The position numbers and the translations under genes are program-made. The notes under the pieces were generated by a model. The model was not told the origin of the DNA and did no database searches. It worked only from the letters and a program-made list of their open reading frames with translations. Of a stretch of DNA of 64,000 nucleotides, positions 34,302 through 53,738 are shown piece by piece. Source of the stretch: an uncultured Gammaproteobacteria bacterium (GTDB lineage: Bacteria; Patescibacteriota; Patescibacteriia; Magasanikbacterales; GWA2-37-8); NCBI GenBank assembly GCA_964536725.1, contig CAZHYJ010000002.1:27219-91218 (forward strand). The letters run 5' to 3'. The first letter of the stretch is position 1; every line of letters starts with the position of its first letter.

Positions 34302-35666
34302 ATGCATATAACATTCTTTGGTGCAGCGCGGGAGGTGACGGGGTCTTGTAATCTTTTGCATGCGGATGGTCTGAATATTTTAGTAGATTGTGGGATGTTT
34401 CAAGGTGGTCCAGAACACGAGAGTAAAAACTTTGATCCGTTGGCTTTTAATCCGAAGGATCTAAATTCTGTCTTGGTTACCCACGCTCATCTTGATCATG
34501 TGGGGCGTTTGCCATTGCTTATTCGCGGTGGTTTTACTGGATATTTTCATGCTACACCAGCGACAATTGAATTGGCGGAATTGATCATGGAAGACACCTT
34601 GCATATCATGACCTATAACAATGAAAAACTGGGTACGCCAATTTTGTATAGTCAAACAGATATCGCAGCGGTGATGACACAGTTTAAAGCATTGGATTAT
34701 CACGAACCGTTAATTTTATCTGGTAAAACTGGTGAGGTAAAAATCGAATTTTATGAGGCAGGCCATATTTTTGGTTCGGTGTTTATTGTGATTGATGCGG
34801 AAGGGAAGCGGGTGGTTTTTTCTGGCGATGTCGGCAATGTTAATGTGCCGATTCTGCGTGAGACCGAAAGTTTGCCAAGTGGTATTGATGTTTTGGTTTG
34901 TGAATCTACTTATGGTGATCGTCTGCACGAGACTCACGAAAAACGACAGGAGATTATTCAGCGTATGGTATCGGATGCGGTATTGCATGGTGGGGTTTTA
35001 ATGATTCCGTCTTTCTCTTTAGAGAGAACGCAGGAATTGATTTATGACCTCAACGATTTGATTGATCGTAAACACGAATTACCACGTATGCCGATATTTT
35101 TGGATAGTCCATTGGCAATCGGAGCGACCAAAGTATATCGCAAGTATACCAACTATTACGACGAGGCGGCGAAAAAATTAATTGATAGCGGAGACGAGTT
35201 GTTTGAGTTTCCAGGATTGACAATGTGTGACACTAAAGAAGAATCGAAACGAATTAATCAAGTGCCAGCACCGAAGATGATTATCGCTGGTGCGGGGATG
35301 ATGAATGGTGGTCGGATTGTGCACCATGCGAAAAGGTATTTGTCAGATGAAAGAAGTACTCTGCTGATTATCGGTTATCAGGCCTCTGGCACACTCGGAA
35401 GAAGAATTTTGGAAGGGGAGTCTCCAGTGATGATATATGGCGAACAGGTGCCAGTGCGTTGTCATATTGACGCCATCGGTGCGTTGTCTGCGCATGCTGA
35501 TCAGAAGAAATTGTTGGATTGGATTGGAGGTGCTAAGATGTTACCGAAAAAAGTTTGTTTGAACCACGGTGAACCTTTGGCTTCTGAGGGGTTGGCCGAA
35601 CGATTGAATGAAGATTTGGGGGTGAAGGTTGATGTGGCAAGTTTTGGAATGAGTGTGGAGGTGTAA
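34302..35666 (+). CDS. MBL-fold beta-CASP ribonuclease (CPSF/RNase J-like RNA-metabolising metallo-beta-lactamase).
   Basis: MHITFFGAAREVTGSC and HAHLDHVGRLP motifs. Start moved to the internal ATG. Confidence 0.75.
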   Translation: MHITFFGAAREVTGSCNLLHADGLNILVDCGMFQGGPEHESKNFDPLAFNPKDLNSVLVTHAHLDHVGRLPLLIRGGFTGYFHATPATIELAELIMEDTLHIMTYNNEKLGTPILYSQTDIAAVMTQFKALDYHEPLILSGKTGEVKIEFYEAGHIFGSVFIVIDAEGKRVVFSGDVGNVNVPILRETESLPSGIDVLVCESTYGDRLHETHEKRQEIIQRMVSDAVLHGGVLMIPSFSLERTQELIYDLNDLIDRKHELPRMPIFLDSPLAIGATKVYRKYTNYYDEAAKKLIDSGDELFEFPGLTMCDTKEESKRINQVPAPKMIIAGAGMMNGGRIVHHAKRYLSDERSTLLIIGYQASGTLGRRILEGESPVMIYGEQVPVRCHIDAIGALSAHADQKKLLDWIGGAKMLPKKVCLNHGEPLASEGLAERLNEDLGVKVDVASFGMSVEV

Positions 35667-35691
35667 AAAACACAAAACAAAAAGACAGACT

Positions 35692-35720
35692 AAAATGGTC
35701 TGTCTTTTTTCTTCTCAAAA
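35692..35720 (+). terminator. Intrinsic terminator, AAGACAGAC-taaaatg-GTCTGTCTTTTTT.
   Basis: Perfect 9-bp stem plus T-run. Confidence 0.7.
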
Positions 35721-35816
35721 TTTTTAAGCTTTTAAAAATTTAGTTGAAGGGTCGATTGTTCATGTCGACCAAGCGCGCTCATCAAAAACCTGATGAGTTG
35801 GTTTTGGTTGCTGGGT

Positions 35817-36194
35817 CTAGCAGCTGCGCTTCTCCGTGCGCAACTCCTCTGCTGGCAAGATCCAGAAAAGTACCTGGGTGACCATCAGGATGGTGGAAAC
35901 GATGTTGACCGTCTCTTCGGTGAACCATCCCGTGTACCGAAGCAGCAGAACCAGAATCGAGCAGAGGATGCAGTGGATGAAGCAGATCTTCGCGAAGAGC
36001 TTGAGATGGTCTGCTTTGTAGAAGATCCACCGGAACTCGTTGGTCGGACCGACCTCCATCCATCCGCCAGTCTTGAGGCACTTCCGCACACTCAGAAAGT
36101 GTACGATGAAGGCTAAGAAGCCCACAATCATCCCCTTGACCACCCAGTCGATGTTGCCGAAAAAGTCCAACATACGCCCCTCCCTCCCAACCAT
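35817..36194 (-). CDS. GC-rich foreign-looking small 3-TM membrane protein (125 aa).
   Basis: About 57% GC against about 38% background. Three predicted TM helices. Upstream AT-rich spacer with a terminator. Confidence 0.45.
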   Translation of the reverse strand: MVGREGRMLDFFGNIDWVVKGMIVGFLAFIVHFLSVRKCLKTGGWMEVGPTNEFRWIFYKADHLKLFAKICFIHCILCSILVLLLRYTGWFTEETVNIVSTILMVTQVLFWILPAEELRTEKRSC

Positions 36195-36441
36195 TTTTTA
36201 GTTGAACAACCGTTTTTCTTATATCGTATTTCAACAAAAATGTCAATGTGCTGTATTGTTTTTTTGGTGATGGTTTGAAAAAACAAAATCCGACTTTAGT
36301 AAGTCGGATTTTTGTATGTTATTCTGTCCGTGCTGCCGCAGAATTCAAATTTTAAATTCTATGGCAGGCACACGGACAGAAGGTTTTTCACTTCTTTGTC
36401 GTGCACCCGAAGTGGCGGGTGTGAGGGGTAGTGGGGGGGGG

Positions 36442-36846
36442 CTATCGCTTGTCCGGCACCTCGATGGGCACCAGGGGGTAGTGCCGGTACCCTTCCGGCG
36501 TCCAATCCAGTGCTCCAAGCGAGAATGACGTCCCTTCAGCTGGAACCTCTCGGAGTATTCCACCTCCGAAGGGGTCCAGCTTCGTGGCCTTCTGAACAGA
36601 CTGGACGTTCACTTTGAACGTCCACCCCGCGCCATTGCGCTTGGTGCGCATGACGCGCTCGTCCAGGCCGACGACCTTCCATGTGTCGCCGCTTCTCGCC
36701 TTGGCGAAGCGGAGGTCCTGGAAGTCGATGGTAAAGGGCGGATACCTCCTGGACAGCCACCTCCCAACGATGTTTCCGACCACGCACATGACCAAGAAAG
36801 ACACCCAGGCCCAAACACCTTCCAACATCGCAAAACTCCTCTGCAA
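36442..36846 (-). CDS. GC-rich foreign-looking membrane-anchored protein (134 aa).
   Basis: GGAGG SD 8 nt upstream. N-terminal TM VWAWVSFLVMCVVGNIVG. Codon usage unlike the surrounding genes. Confidence 0.45.
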   Translation of the reverse strand: MQRSFAMLEGVWAWVSFLVMCVVGNIVGRWLSRRYPPFTIDFQDLRFAKARSGDTWKVVGLDERVMRTKRNGAGWTFKVNVQSVQKATKLDPFGGGILREVPAEGTSFSLGALDWTPEGYRHYPLVPIEVPDKR

Positions 36847-37107
36847 CGGTTTTCTTCATCGGCGCACGTTACGCCAACAAATACTCACCGACCACGGGCT
36901 TGGGGAAAATCGTATTCCCGGCCTCGTTTTTGTTTTCTGTTTAAGAAGTCAAAAATGAGGCTAGGAAAACGTAATGTAAAGAACAAATTAACGTTTAAGT
37001 ATAGTACAAAAAAGCGGTTTTGTCAATGTACTTTTGCACTTTTTCTGCATCCCCACTTTTTCCCTTGTTTTAGCCATTTTTTCTGTGGATAACTATGGTA
37101 AAAAATG

Positions 37108-37160
37108 TTGACGAGTGTAGGTAAGTGGTGTAAAATGGAATGTAGTGGGGAAAAGTGGTG
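37108..37160 (+). promoter_or_regulatory. mraZ promoter (TTGACG-17-TAAAAT) overlapping four direct repeats (AGTGGTG, AATGGAA, AGTGGGG, AGTGGTG) at 10-bp periodicity.
   Basis: Read from the sequence. MraZ is known to bind direct GTGGG-type repeats spaced 10 bp apart upstream of mraZ. Confidence 0.55.
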
Positions 37161-37170
37161 AAAAACTAAT

Positions 37171-37602
37171 ATGTTTATCGGCGAATATTCTCACAATTTA
37201 GATGACAAAGGACGCTTGGCCATACCGGTCAAATTTCGTCGTGAGCTCGCCAAAGGGGCGGTTGTTACGCGTGGACTCGACAACTGTCTTTTTTTATACA
37301 CAAAAAAAGAATGGGAGAAGTTAGCAGAAAAATTAGCCACCTTACCGATCAGCCAATCCAACAGTCGCGCCTTTTCTCGTTTGATGTTGGCGGGAGCGAT
37401 GGATGTGGAAGTAGACAAGCAAGGCCGGGTAGTATTGCCGGAATATTTGCGCACCTTTGCTGGTTTAAAGAAAAATACCGTGATCGCTGGTTTGTACAAC
37501 CGTGTTGAAATTTGGGAAGAAAGTAAGTGGACTGTTTACAAACAACAGACCGAAACCAACAGCAACGAGATCGCGGAGAAAATGGCTGAACTAGGAATTT
37601 AA
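37171..37602 (+). CDS. mraZ: Transcriptional regulator MraZ.
   Basis: Two SpoVT/AbrB-like halves. N-terminus MFIGEYSHNLDDKGRLAIPVKFRREL. Confidence 0.9.
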   Translation: MFIGEYSHNLDDKGRLAIPVKFRRELAKGAVVTRGLDNCLFLYTKKEWEKLAEKLATLPISQSNSRAFSRLMLAGAMDVEVDKQGRVVLPEYLRTFAGLKKNTVIAGLYNRVEIWEESKWTVYKQQTETNSNEIAEKMAELGI

Positions 37603-38940: not shown

Positions 38941-38997
38941 TTAGTAGTTGTTGTGTATTTTGACTTTTTGTTGTATATTATTAAAGTAATTAGACAT

Positions 38998-39294
38998 ATG
39001 TCCACAGCAGAACTATTAAAAAAGATACAACCCACACTTACCGCCGGCAACGTCCAATTTGCCGCCCTTTTTGGCTCTCGTGCCAAGGGTTCTTTGCGTA
39101 CCAACAGTGACTACGATTTTTTAGTTCGGTTTGCACCGTCTTTTAAGTATACTGTTTTTGATTTATTGGATCTACGCGACAATTTAAGTCGTAATTTAAA
39201 AAAACCAGTCGACGTTATCACCGTTAATGGACTAAATCCTAAAATGAAATCTGAGGTTTACAAAACAATGAAAGTTGTATATGGAAACAGGTAA
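38998..39294 (+). CDS. Minimal nucleotidyltransferase (MntA-type antitoxin).
   Basis: GSRAKGSLRTNSDYDFLV = GSxxxG...SDxD nucleotidyltransferase signature. Confidence 0.7.
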   Translation: MSTAELLKKIQPTLTAGNVQFAALFGSRAKGSLRTNSDYDFLVRFAPSFKYTVFDLLDLRDNLSRNLKKPVDVITVNGLNPKMKSEVYKTMKVVYGNR

Positions 39295-39634
39295 GCGTGA
39301 TTATTTATATTTATCACATATTTTAGACGCCATCGGTGATGTGAATAAATTTTTGCGTGGAATTGAATATGCGGATTTTGCTCACAGTGATCTTTTACAA
39401 AGTGCAGTGATGCGTAAACTTGAGATTATGGGCGAGGCTACCAAGCGATTGAGCTTAGATTTTCGCAAAACACATGCAGATATCCCTTGGAAGAAAATTG
39501 CCGGCATGCGCGACGTCCTAATTCATGATTATTTCGGTGTGGATGCAAAAGCGGTTTGGAATACTGTAAAGGAGGATTTGTCGGATTTAAAGAAGAAAAT
39601 TACGTTGATTACCAAAATGAATCCAATTATTTAA
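39281..39634 (+). CDS. HepT-like HEPN-domain toxin (DUF86).
   Basis: Rx4HxY motif (MRDVLIHDY). The 14-nt overlap with the upstream MNT gene is the typical MntA-HepT operon layout. Confidence 0.7.
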   Translation: METGKRDYLYLSHILDAIGDVNKFLRGIEYADFAHSDLLQSAVMRKLEIMGEATKRLSLDFRKTHADIPWKKIAGMRDVLIHDYFGVDAKAVWNTVKEDLSDLKKKITLITKMNPII

Positions 39635-39758
39635 TTCTTGGTTTTCATATTACTTGGTCGTTCGGTTTTTTGTCCACCATTTCTGCATTTGTTGAAACGG
39701 TGGTTTCTTCATTTTTATGGGAAATAGTGTATAATAACCCAGACATAAAAAAACATAT

Positions 39759-49982: not shown

Positions 49983-50243
49983 GTGTCTAGTAAAAAGTCT
50001 CCGTTGAGGCTGGAGCTGGAGGAGAGCCTTACCTTAGAAAAGTTGAAGTTCGTGTTCGAAGAGGGTAGGGGTGTATTCCTTCATGACTGGGAAGGGCTGA
50101 TCAAGAGCCATCCTCGCAAGAGGGGCGTGGTCGCGAGGTATCTCGCGACGGTCGTTGGCAGTCATGTCCAGATGCCCGTCGAGGTGACGGGTTGGACTAG
50201 TGCCGGCGAAGGACGATATCAGCTGCACTACAAGCTGATCTGA
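49983..50243 (+). CDS. GC-rich foreign-looking small protein (86 aa), GTG start.
   Basis: Strong SD GAGGAGGGAGAAA, about 55% GC. Followed by the hairpin CCCCCGAA...TTCGGGGG. Confidence 0.45.
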   Translation: MSSKKSPLRLELEESLTLEKLKFVFEEGRGVFLHDWEGLIKSHPRKRGVVARYLATVVGSHVQMPVEVTGWTSAGEGRYQLHYKLI

Positions 50244-50349
50244 AGGAGGGTGGCGAGTTGGAAACTCGCAATTACCCCCGAACGCGCGAACCTGCTCTTC
50301 GGGGGTTCGCTTTATATAAACCCAAGAGACGATAAAACAACAATTTTAA

Positions 50350-50385
50350 AACCGCCCCAGTTGGAGCGGTTTTGTTTTTTTACTG
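50350..50385. terminator. Bidirectional terminator, AAACCGC-cccagttgga-GCGGTTT.
   Basis: Hairpin flanked by A-run and T-run, downstream of recR (minus strand). Confidence 0.5.
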
Positions 50386-50976
50386 ATGTCGATGCTTCAA
50401 TGCGTTCCCCAGCGTAATCTCATCCGCATACTGAATATCACTCCCCGTCGGCAACCCACGTGCTAAACGTGTTGTTTTTATCTTAGGAAATTTTTCTTTT
50501 ATCTCCTTTTCCAAATACATCATGGTAGTCTCTCCCGCCATATCAGGATTAAGCGCTAAAATCACTTCTTGTATTTCCGTACTTTTTAATCTTTCCAGTA
50601 ATTCCGATATTTTTAGATTACCAATCTGGTCTAGGTCAGTTGCGTCAATCGTCCCGCGTAAAATATGGTAAGTGCCTTTGTATTCACCGGTACTTTCTAA
50701 TACAGGTACGGCCTGTGGATCGGACACCACGCAAATAATATTTTTCATTCGAGTTTTATCTTGGCAAATTGGACAAGGATTGGTGTCGGAGAAATTCCAA
50801 CAGGTTTCGCAACTTTTTACTTTAGCTAGAAGTTCTTCCAGTGAGTTCACCGTCTCCATCACTTCTTTTTTACCGGAGTTTAACCAATAAAAAACAAACC
50901 TTTCCGCGGTGTGTTGACCAACGGAAGGAAGTCTTTTCAAGACGGCAATCAATTTGTCAATTGAAGGCGAGTACAT
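50380..50976 (-). CDS. recR: Recombination protein RecR.
   Basis: C4 zinc finger (CETCWNFSDTNPCPIC) and Toprim domain. Confidence 0.9.
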   Translation of the reverse strand: MYSPSIDKLIAVLKRLPSVGQHTAERFVFYWLNSGKKEVMETVNSLEELLAKVKSCETCWNFSDTNPCPICQDKTRMKNIICVVSDPQAVPVLESTGEYKGTYHILRGTIDATDLDQIGNLKISELLERLKSTEIQEVILALNPDMAGETTMMYLEKEIKEKFPKIKTTRLARGLPTGSDIQYADEITLGNALKHRHQ

Positions 50977-52925: not shown

Positions 52926-53738
52926 CTACTTGTTTCCACGGGACTTGAAACGGGGGGTGATGTCGCTGATTAAGCGTCTGATGAGGTCGGCGGCAATGGG
53001 GAGGATCGGGGTGTGGTGCTTTTCGGTCGTTTGGTGCTTCGCCTTTTTTTCCGCGTACGATTTCCAGGAAAGCGGAATCGAAGCGAGGAAGGTGAACACA
53101 CCGACAGTGCCGATCACGCTGGTAGGCTCGTTGATGGAGCACATCATCAGCATGATTCCAGCGGACTGCAAGATCATCTTGATCTTCCCGGAGAGGGTAG
53201 ATGCAAGTGCTCGTGTGTCTGGGTGGTTTTGCACCACCTCGTAGGCGAAGTCGGCCAGGCGAATCTTCGTCAGCTTGACCTCCAGATAGGCGAAGCCGAA
53301 GAAATCTGTCGCAAGGACGACCCAGTACCACCACTCGACGGGGATGCTGTCTGCTACCACAAGGGCAATGATCACGACGGCGAGGCTGAATTGCGAGAGC
53401 AGTGTCAGAATCTGCGCTTTGTCAGCCAGCGGGTCTGAGACCTTGCCCAGTGCGGTGCAGTTCCGTCGGTAGCGTGCCAGCGCTCCGTCCAGAGCGTCTA
53501 GCAGCAGGGTGAACAAGAGTGCCACCACTCCGAGCCAGATCAGCACGTTGCTGTTGAGCACTGCCCCCAGAAGAAACAGCACGAAGACAAAAGGCGTCAT
53601 CGGCAGCACTCTGAAGACAGTGATCATGTTCGGCGTAATCCACACTGGAATGATCTTGCAGATCGGTTCCAGCAAGCGGTCGAAAATCCCAGCCGGGAAT
53701 TCCGATGTGCCGTTGTAAACGGCATTTTTCAAGTCCAT
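52926..53738 (-). CDS. CDP-alcohol phosphatidyltransferase family protein (PgsA-like phospholipid headgroup transferase). GC-rich and foreign-looking.
   Basis: Perfect DALDGALARYRRNCTALGKVSDPLAD = D-G-x2-A-R-x8-G-x3-D-x3-D signature. GGAGGG SD. CTG/GGC-biased codon usage. Confidence 0.75.
   Translation of the reverse strand: MDLKNAVYNGTSEFPAGIFDRLLEPICKIIPVWITPNMITVFRVLPMTPFVFVLFLLGAVLNSNVLIWLGVVALLFTLLLDALDGALARYRRNCTALGKVSDPLADKAQILTLLSQFSLAVVIIALVVADSIPVEWWYWVVLATDFFGFAYLEVKLTKIRLADFAYEVVQNHPDTRALASTLSGKIKMILQSAGIMLMMCSINEPTSVIGTVGVFTFLASIPLSWKSYAEKKAKHQTTEKHHTPILPIAADLIRRLISDITPRFKSRGNK

Follow-up and report, generated by a model that had tools for sequence, protein, structure and literature searches.

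The window analysed here, a 64,000-nucleotide (nt) stretch of contig CAZHYJ010000002.1 (assembly GCA_964536725.1), carries two islands rich in guanine plus cytosine (GC), termed A and B, between the gene for a β-CASP ribonuclease (RNase) and mraZ. We consider, with a probability of about 0.65, that these islands are two separate single-gene accessory cassettes, similar to the morons of bacteriophages, which reside in a long-lived hotspot of insertion and recombination. Comparison with related loci, referred to below by L numbers and their proteins by P numbers, shows that this slot is near-empty in eight of them and filled with different GC-rich ORFans in closer ones, and that its contents have been exchanged within the species.

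The locus was brought to attention by a sequence-only reading, which put the background at about 38% GC. The window in fact has 41.1% GC, with a standard deviation (sd) of 5.4% across 200-bp windows, against which the block 35751-36200 of island A reaches 52.7% and the block 36301-36900 of island B 57.0%, with a peak of 63.5% at 36400-36599. The AT-rich spacer described between the two blocks was confirmed (36197-36321, 28.8% GC), as was their site between the β-CASP RNase terminator and the mraZ promoter, the flanking genes being adjacent in eight related loci. When the tetranucleotide and codon comparisons proposed in that reading were run, island B ranked first and island A sixth by tetranucleotide distance among 424 windows of the same size, and codon usage was reversed relative to host genes, with TTC at 83% versus 15%, AAG at 86% versus 19%, ATC at 80% versus 27% and CTG at 40% versus 9%. 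The codon bias is as that reading described it, and at least two further genes with outlying GC at the third codon position (GC3) are found elsewhere in the window.

Each GC-rich block contains one minus-strand open reading frame (ORF), named ORF-A and ORF-B. GC at the first, second and third codon positions is 0.45, 0.34 and 0.82 in ORF-A and 0.58, 0.46 and 0.77 in ORF-B, while GC3 of the 56 long ORFs of the window is 0.40 ± 0.07, which places both genes more than 5 sd out. A GC3 far above GC1, with GC1 above GC2, within a single full-length frame marks a gene shaped by GC-biased mutation pressure, and argues against a noncoding RNA or a chance ORF. Both ORFs are thereby shown to be genuine protein-coding genes, on the strand originally favoured, with the composition of a genome of around 55-65% GC. 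The high GC is restricted to the ORFs and some 20-60 nt on each side of them; promoters, spacers and terminators have the composition of the host.

The signals read from the sequence divide the locus into two autonomous minus-strand units (Table 1). Each gene has a promoter, Shine–Dalgarno (SD) sequence, ORF, hairpin and terminator of its own, which makes two units and not an operon, and the predicted layout is the same in both, viz. a host-like, AT-rich σ70-type promoter, an SD, a GC3-rich ORF, a 3′ hairpin and an intrinsic terminator. The single insert first envisaged thus becomes two transcription units with separate histories, while the palindromic terminator and the long imperfect hairpin noted in the spacer are both present. 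The terminator that closes the ORF-A unit has a 12-bp stem with an A run on one side and a T run on the other; it folds within the ORF-A 3′ untranslated region (UTR), where several small hairpins precede it. Over 69 nt, the ORF-A promoter has 72% identity with that of the L009 homologue of ORF-B. At the end of the ORF-B unit, a AAAATCCG-type terminator occupies the equivalent position in L011, L012 and L018, and a different terminator stem does so in L009 and L095. The 146-nt ORF-B 3′ region, with its hairpin and terminator, folds with -61.3 kcal/mol (z = -9.3). The 5′UTR of ORF-B is kept in the window, L005 and L011 and absent from L009, L012 and L095, its promoter is conserved in L001, L005 and L011, and the region of the mraZ promoter (37021-37200) is 87% identical to that of L009. 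The 10-nt repeat TTTAGTTGAA, which brackets island A exactly, could be a target duplication or a microhomology junction; this is only suggestive, because about one such repeat is expected by chance per 1.5 kb. An 11-nt repeat, AACTCCTCTGC (35842 and 36834), might have marked cassette boundaries but was judged to be chance, because its first copy lies inside the ORF-A coding sequence and is followed by no start codon.

Table 1. Coordinates, within the window, of the features of the β-CASP-mraZ slot (aa, amino acids; promoters and terminators are predicted)
Feature	Positions	Strand	Remarks
Bidirectional intrinsic terminator	35679-35709		Closes the β-CASP RNase gene (+) and the ORF-A unit (-)
Direct repeat TTTAGTTGAA, left copy	35739-35748		Exact, 10 nt; island A starts at the next base
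GC island A	35749-36196	-	Foreign composition, ORF-A and its SD; 52.7% vs 41% GC
ORF-A	35817-36173	-	118 aa (125 aa from 36194); SD GGGAGGGAGGGG at 36177-36188
Direct repeat TTTAGTTGAA, right copy	36197-36206		Other bracket of island A
ORF-A promoter	36218-36246	-	TTGACA (36246-36241), 17-nt spacer, TATAAG (36223-36218); read from the sequence
Bidirectional intrinsic terminator	36285-36312		AAAATCCGACTT-N4-AAGTCGGATTTT, end of the ORF-B unit; palindrome and fold
Long slot hairpin	36322-36381		9 bp, 3-nt bulge, 5 bp, AT-rich inner stem
ORF-B 3′UTR	36382-36441	-	62% GC; last ~35 nt before the hairpin common to the L009 and L012 cassettes
ORF-B	36442-36828	-	128 aa (134 aa from TTG 36846); SD GAGGAG at 36836-36841
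ORF-B unit 5′UTR	36847-36990	-	~145 nt, structured (z = -4.6)
ORF-B unit promoter	36998-37026	-	TTGACA-17-TATACT (11/12); divergent from the mraZ promoter
mraZ promoter	37108-37136	+	TTGACG-17-TAAAAT; right-hand conserved border of the slot

A separate observation concerns the two divergent promoters at the right-hand border. Three of the 15 matches to AAGTGG(T/G)G in the window cluster at 37051-37160. Two are direct copies, one within the mraZ promoter and one behind it, the third is inverted and lies beside the ORF-B promoter, and a further TAGTGGGG lies in the same interval. These copies resemble published MraZ operator boxes, and MraZ might regulate the cassette promoter as well.

The gene order β-CASP to mraZ is widespread in relatives, and related genomes were compared for presence or absence, as had been proposed. 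Among 25 related loci with both genes the gap between them is at most 350 bp in eight, 351-1000 bp in nine and more than 1 kb in eight; the near-empty slots have gaps of about 170-330 bp. In L010, a metagenome-assembled genome (MAG) labelled Patescibacteria with a β-CASP protein of 68% identity, the genes are 174 bp apart; judging by this label and by gene content, the genome of the window is probably of Patescibacteria type. Genes of unusual composition are concentrated here. An ORF was counted as a GC3 outlier if it reached 80 aa, exceeded the local median GC3 by 0.28 or more and showed a codon-position pattern of the coding type, and 424 kb of related loci yielded 17 of these. Eight fall within the β-CASP-mraZ gap, which accounts for 5.6% of the sequence, and another two are immediately upstream of mraZ; several of the others look like antisense artefacts.

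The cargo genes are mutually unrelated except for the ORF-B family. L009 (β-CASP 88% identical) has a 196-aa acidic protein and a 138/154-aa homologue of ORF-B, both on the minus strand and of 59-64% GC, whereas L012 (MraZ 93%) has a single, unrelated, Cys-rich ORF of 139 aa with a GC3 of 0.88. In L018 a 109-aa ORF is followed by a different hairpin and then by the terminator type of the window. The cassettes of L009, L005 and L018 each end with a long, near-perfect hairpin of their own, of 14-17 bp and without a U tract (L009 7450-7490, L005 2110-2155 and L018 4350-4386), and this ‘double hairpin’ 3′ end, in which a hairpin lacking a U tract precedes a canonical terminator, is recurrent. As to the L009 record itself (CAZHTA010000004.1), its β-CASP, MraZ and RsmH proteins are 88-95% identical, and its gene order syntenic, to those of the window and of contigs labelled Patescibacteria, and its label ‘uncultured Gammaproteobacteria bacterium’ is probably wrong, through a mistake in binning or labelling.

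Exchange of the contents is best seen between close strains. L002-L005 retain island A with 100% conservation, L011 and L012 lack it, and L009 has other content in its place. In L005 (SRR27197516) the flanks are 99% identical to the window and ORF-A is unchanged, but positions 36316-36833, i.e. ORF-B and the hairpin, are replaced by 334 bp encoding an unrelated 69-aa protein with two transmembrane (TM) segments, a GC3 of 0.73 and a perfect 14-bp hairpin of its own. Of the 18 mismatches to the left of this swap, 17 fall in 35372-35573, at the 3′ end of the β-CASP gene; these 17 substitutions in 200 bp amount to 8.5% divergence, compared to one substitution in the surrounding 2 kb, and the patch marks a short tract of DNA that entered by recombination from a diverged relative. 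L011 (SRR32414324) carries an ORF-B allele, P0002, of only 54% identity. Nucleotide identity between this locus and the window is 90-100% down to about 36850, 37-73% across the ORF and again 97-100% from about 36412, and the synonymous divergence (dS) is 1.23 in ORF-B versus 0.145 in the adjacent mraZ, with a ratio of nonsynonymous (dN) to synonymous divergence (ω) of 0.34. Such old alleles in young flanks indicate replacement of alleles by recombination and not fast evolution in place. L011 has no ORF-A, and an HD-domain gene of host composition follows its β-CASP gene. In L001 a 305-bp deletion (36683-36987) removes the 5′UTR and the TM helix of ORF-B, which indicates that ORF-B is dispensable.

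Two further regularities set this slot apart. Across five diverged loci (the window, L011, L012, L009 and L095) the arms of the slot hairpin, TGTCCGTGCTGCC and GGCAGGCACACGGACA, do not vary whereas the loop does, which points to constraint on the sequence itself and not on pairing alone. The arms have no G-U pairs, so the functional strand is not indicated; no further copy of the hairpin or of the ORF-B 5′UTR was found in the window, the hairpin is confined to one genus-level clade, and Rfam gave no match at gathering score, with only noise at E values up to 5. The second regularity is the exactness of the junctions. L005 and L011 have one 5′UTR variant in common as far as the ATG, its final 25 nt differing at two positions; from the ATG on their sequences are unrelated. 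At the other end, the unrelated ORF of L012 has the same last ~35 nt of 3′UTR and the same hairpin as the ORF-B family, its junction with L009 lying about 40 nt after the stop codon.

Considering the proteins themselves, translation likely starts at internal ATGs, 36173 in ORF-A and 36828 in ORF-B, each with an SD 5′ to it. Hydropathy supports three TM segments in ORF-A and one, N-terminal, in ORF-B, as the sequence-only reading had stated, while the lengths of 125 and 134 aa that it gave probably reduce to 118 and 128 aa, and the GGAGG-type SD that it assigned to ORF-B belongs to ORF-A (GGGAGGGAGGGG), that of ORF-B being GAGGAG. The TM helix of ORF-B, like that of its homologues, has basic residues on its C-terminal side, which by the positive-inside rule would place the C-terminal β-rich domain in the cytoplasm; ORF-B would then not be a classical signal-anchored protein, as it had been called.

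The ORF-B family has five members (the window, P0002, P0006 from L009, P0007 from L095 and the truncated P0001), all in the slot. Homologues were sought by word-indexed searches of 5.8 billion proteins, to which a profile search added only P0006 and P0007, and by a full phmmer scan of 1.84 billion representatives, in which P0001 and P0002 were real and three further matches were repeat artefacts. P0006 is 28% identical to ORF-B. The family is recognised by an R-x-(Y/H)-P motif near the membrane and by G-x-W-(T/K)-(F/Y)-x-V; ω is 0.34-0.35 in two independent pairs, indicating purifying selection on the protein, conservation is higher at the protein than at the DNA level, and dN exceeds that of housekeeping genes more than tenfold. 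ORF-A, by contrast to this family, is a singleton ORFan. No match to either protein was obtained in Pfam, PHROGs, PADLOC or NCBIfam, and no holin, toxin, defence or phage family was matched; the same collections were empty for eight other cassette proteins save for one weak match of the L040 cassette protein (244 aa, from a distant locus) to peptidase M54. Sequence searches of the PDB gave no match, a Foldseek search of it with AlphaFold2 models gave none below E = 0.4, tblastn against plasmids and phages found none, and no relative was present in IMG/VR, scanned with the hairpin and with both proteins, or in INPHARED. Automatic annotation is misleading here: in the public contigs L002 and L003, 107-aa ORFs are called at 35793-36116 (+) and 36536-36859 (-) in place of ORF-A and ORF-B, in the wrong frame or strand (GC1-rich frames), so that the true proteins are not retrieved by exact look-up and genes of this kind do not appear in protein databases.

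Taking these results together, the original insertions would have arisen by illegitimate or microhomology joining, and would have kept the resident promoter and 5′UTR together with the 3′ hairpin and terminator as an expression platform. New alleles would enter through homologous recombination between conserved flanks, probably once DNA has been taken up. ORF-A and ORF-B would be independently acting, dispensable envelope proteins, the latter with an N-out TM anchor and a cytoplasmic β-rich domain. Old alleles in young flanks and presence/absence polymorphism, together with membrane location and dispensability, would suggest diversifying or frequency-dependent selection, and conflict at the cell surface, either phage or superinfection exclusion or interaction with host cells, would be the likeliest single role, although we hold it to be less likely than not.

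The known kinds that the locus most resembles are morons and hotspots of horizontal gene transfer (HGT). Morons, as described by Hendrix and colleagues, are genes that occur singly, each under its own promoter and with a factor-independent terminator, between genes that are adjacent in related phages, and are often deviant in base composition. The cassettes likewise consist of a promoter, one ORF and a stem-loop terminator between genes adjacent in relatives, are unlike their neighbours in composition, are dispensable, often encode membrane-associated products and vary between close relatives. Unlike morons, they sit in a cellular chromosome beside a division and cell-wall operon, with no phage genes within about 15-20 kb, no PHROG match and no relative in IMG/VR or INPHARED, and their promoters and terminators look resident, only the ORF being foreign. 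Chromosomal HGT hotspots, which Oliveira et al. in 2017 are said to have described as sites between conserved core genes exchanged through homologous recombination of the flanks, share with the slot, as do flexible genomic islets, conserved core flanks, emptiness in some relatives, strain-specific cargo, an absence of mobility genes and a recombination patch in the flank. The slot differs from them in its tiny scale of one or two ORFs of 70-200 aa, in ORF-exact replacement under a fixed 5′UTR and 3′ hairpin, and in cargo that is uniformly ORFan and GC3-rich across many lineages. As a variant of these kinds it is distinguished by single-ORF scale, ORF-exact swapping under fixed expression signals, uniformly GC-rich ORFan cargo in low-GC genomes of Patescibacteria type and a conserved slot hairpin. 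In the literature, genomic islands have been reported in Patescibacteria in general (PMC12455944) and a repeat-based hypervariable gene has been described that is not comparable to the slot (PMC6851277); nothing specific on GC-rich cassettes upstream of mraZ was found.

Several results weigh against the cassette explanation. The horizontal origin originally proposed agrees with the foreign composition and with insertion between flanking genes, but no donor was found among the 1.84 billion representatives or in the viral, plasmid and phage collections. Homologues of ORF-B occur only in the slot, and ORF-A has none at all in the 5.8 billion word-indexed proteins or in the viral, plasmid and phage sets. 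The AlphaFold2 models are of low confidence, with mean predicted local distance difference test (pLDDT) scores of 66 for ORF-A, modelled as three long helices, and 56 for ORF-B. The junctions are remarkably exact for undirected illegitimate recombination, which would need strong selection for expression. Furthermore, all five ORF-B members have a GC3 of 0.77-0.87, compared to about 0.32-0.49 in the surrounding genes, although the housekeeping genes of the lineages sharing the ORF-B slot are saturated for synonymous change (dS 1.4-2.8); a single transfer followed by amelioration predicts otherwise. Either related alleles have been imported repeatedly from a GC-rich source that the databases lack, or some process actively keeps the GC high. 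The persistence of GC3, the ORF-exact replacement and the invariant hairpin are the reasons for which an integron-like capture mechanism is still considered.

Three rivals are set aside with some confidence. That the islands are an assembly chimera, or contaminating high-GC reads in a low-GC contig, was suspected in the sequence-only reading and might be argued from the abrupt change in composition and from Logan gene calls in the wrong frames. However, the junctions recur in per-run assemblies from several projects, with contigs of at least six other sequencing accessions reproducing them: Logan contigs of SRR11845624, 25, 26, 35 and 36, found by look-up of the MraZ protein of the window, are 99.97-100% identical over the parts of the islands that each covers, contigs of SRR27197516 and SRR16642447 are about 99.4% identical, and in the ENA contig ERZ773284 the mraZ promoter is linked to internal sequence of ORF-B. 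Every island junction is thus present in at least one independent assembly, diverged copies of the architecture exist in an NCBI MAG (L009), a JGI contig (L012) and two more Logan runs (L011 and L095), and the GC-rich ORFs are in functional register with host-like promoters, SDs and terminators, which leaves a chimera a negligible probability. It is also extremely unlikely that the blocks are structured noncoding RNAs and not protein genes; high GC in an AT-rich genome is the classic signal of such RNAs and both UTRs are strongly structured, but three-base periodicity coincides exactly with the full-length ORFs, ω is below 1, the ORF-B family is better conserved as protein than as DNA, and Rfam has no match. 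The idea that ORF-A and ORF-B act together as a membrane toxin/immunity or holin-type pair was suggested by two small, membrane-associated, adjacent and co-stranded genes, and the cassette proteins do resemble small hydrophobic toxins, holins and superinfection-exclusion proteins in size, TM content and strain variability. They show no sequence or profile similarity to these and have no partner gene, ORF-A with its three TM helices being only generically holin-like. A bidirectional terminator and a promoter separate the two units and the genes vary independently in L005, L011, L009 and L012, which excludes an obligate pair, and with the family searches empty for both we regard joint action as very unlikely.

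The two remaining rivals address the points on which the cassette explanation is weakest. ORF-B, and perhaps ORF-A, could be native, fast-evolving genes in which high GC is actively maintained and not imported, by way of mRNA structure or stability, rare codons throttling a harmful membrane protein, or GC-biased gene conversion in a hotspot. In keeping with this, the ORF-B family is found only in the slot, in five related genomes and with a high GC3 in every member, the ORF-B dS between the window and L009 (1.6) is similar to that of housekeeping genes, with a far higher dN, and promoters and terminators are host-like. We nevertheless consider residence unlikely, as the dS contrast in L011 shows that alleles were exchanged, the slot is filled by unrelated ORFs in L005 and L012 and empty in other relatives, the 3′UTR is also GC-rich, and no known mechanism lifts the GC3 of one gene from 0.4 to 0.8 while the recombining flanks stay at 29-43% GC. 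Alternatively, the slot may be an integron-like capture system without a recognisable integrase, in which ORFs are inserted exactly at the start codon and traded among strains; jointly with active GC maintenance, this is rather improbable. Here the fixed promoter and 5′UTR on one side and the invariant hairpin and terminator on the other, upstream of mraZ, would receive promoterless GC-rich ORFs from a high-GC reservoir, e.g. an unknown element or the bacterium that is host to these epibionts. In its strictest form, which we hold to be distinctly improbable, insertion would be site-specific and directed by the hairpin, with promoter, 5′UTR and hairpin as landing pad and a recombinase encoded elsewhere, functionally like attI/attC recombination. 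The start-codon-exact switch between L005 and L011, the common 3′ end in L012, hairpin arms that are invariant across dS-saturated lineages, the near-perfect 3′ hairpin without a U tract on each cassette type and the repeat that brackets island A would all fit, and the cassettes are small, mostly ORFan and single-ORF, with an imperfect hairpin end and a fixed site with exchangeable contents, as in integrons. In contrast to integrons there is no IntI, attI, attC R″/R′ core or array: no integron integrase is among the genes at 21-56 kb of the window, RYYYAAC-N30-130-GTTRRRY is absent from both strands of 35600-37200, although the hairpin does have a 3-nt bulge, and at most two cassettes occur, each with its own TTGACA-type promoter. 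The hairpin is present once per locus and not per cassette, and in one genus-level clade only. The breakpoints also vary, L005 having swapped the hairpin and L011 not, which fits homologous recombination better.

The genes at 21-56 kb of the window are housekeeping in character, encoding glycosyltransferases, RecJ, LepA, MurJ, the β-CASP RNase, MraZ, RsmH, a ClpB-like protein, MraY, DnaB, RecR and others; no integrase, transposase, phage or other mobile-element gene was found among them. A search for a tRNA gene as a potential integration site found none. Patescibacteria have tiny genomes and depend on other cells, and little is known of the ways in which they gain and trade strain-specific genes. 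The locus is a small, well-delimited and repeatedly sampled example of single-gene swapping beside the cell-division operon, in which GC-rich ORFans, several of them encoding membrane proteins, are exchanged under resident expression signals. If the cargo comes from host bacteria, it would be a direct record of gene flow from host to epibiont; if high GC is actively maintained, this would be a new compositional phenomenon. As standard gene callers use the wrong frame here, such genes are under-represented in protein databases.

Elsewhere in the window, an MscL-like gene and recR flank a GC3-outlier ORFan of 86 aa (49983-50243, +; GC3 0.68), whose TTGACA promoter and terminator are both host-like and whose 3′ hairpins are GC-rich; it is uncalled in the Logan annotation and is followed by a possible 55-aa ORF (50250-50417) whose SD overlaps the stop codon. 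A look-up of this recR-adjacent island for variation returned only same-strain contigs. Between dnaB and the gene for a 718-aa membrane protein, a CDP-alcohol phosphatidyltransferase gene (PF01066, pgsA-like; 52926-53738, -) of 56% GC and GC3 0.72, with a host-like promoter and a GC-rich 3′ hairpin (GTAGCCGCGA...TCGCGGCTAC), appears to be a third gene of foreign composition, this one of recognisable function. Finally, an NTP_transf_2/HepT pair of the MNT-HepT toxin-antitoxin type (38953-39650) lies inside the reduced division and cell-wall (dcw) cluster, just after an ftsL-like gene, and is another accessory insertion near mraZ.

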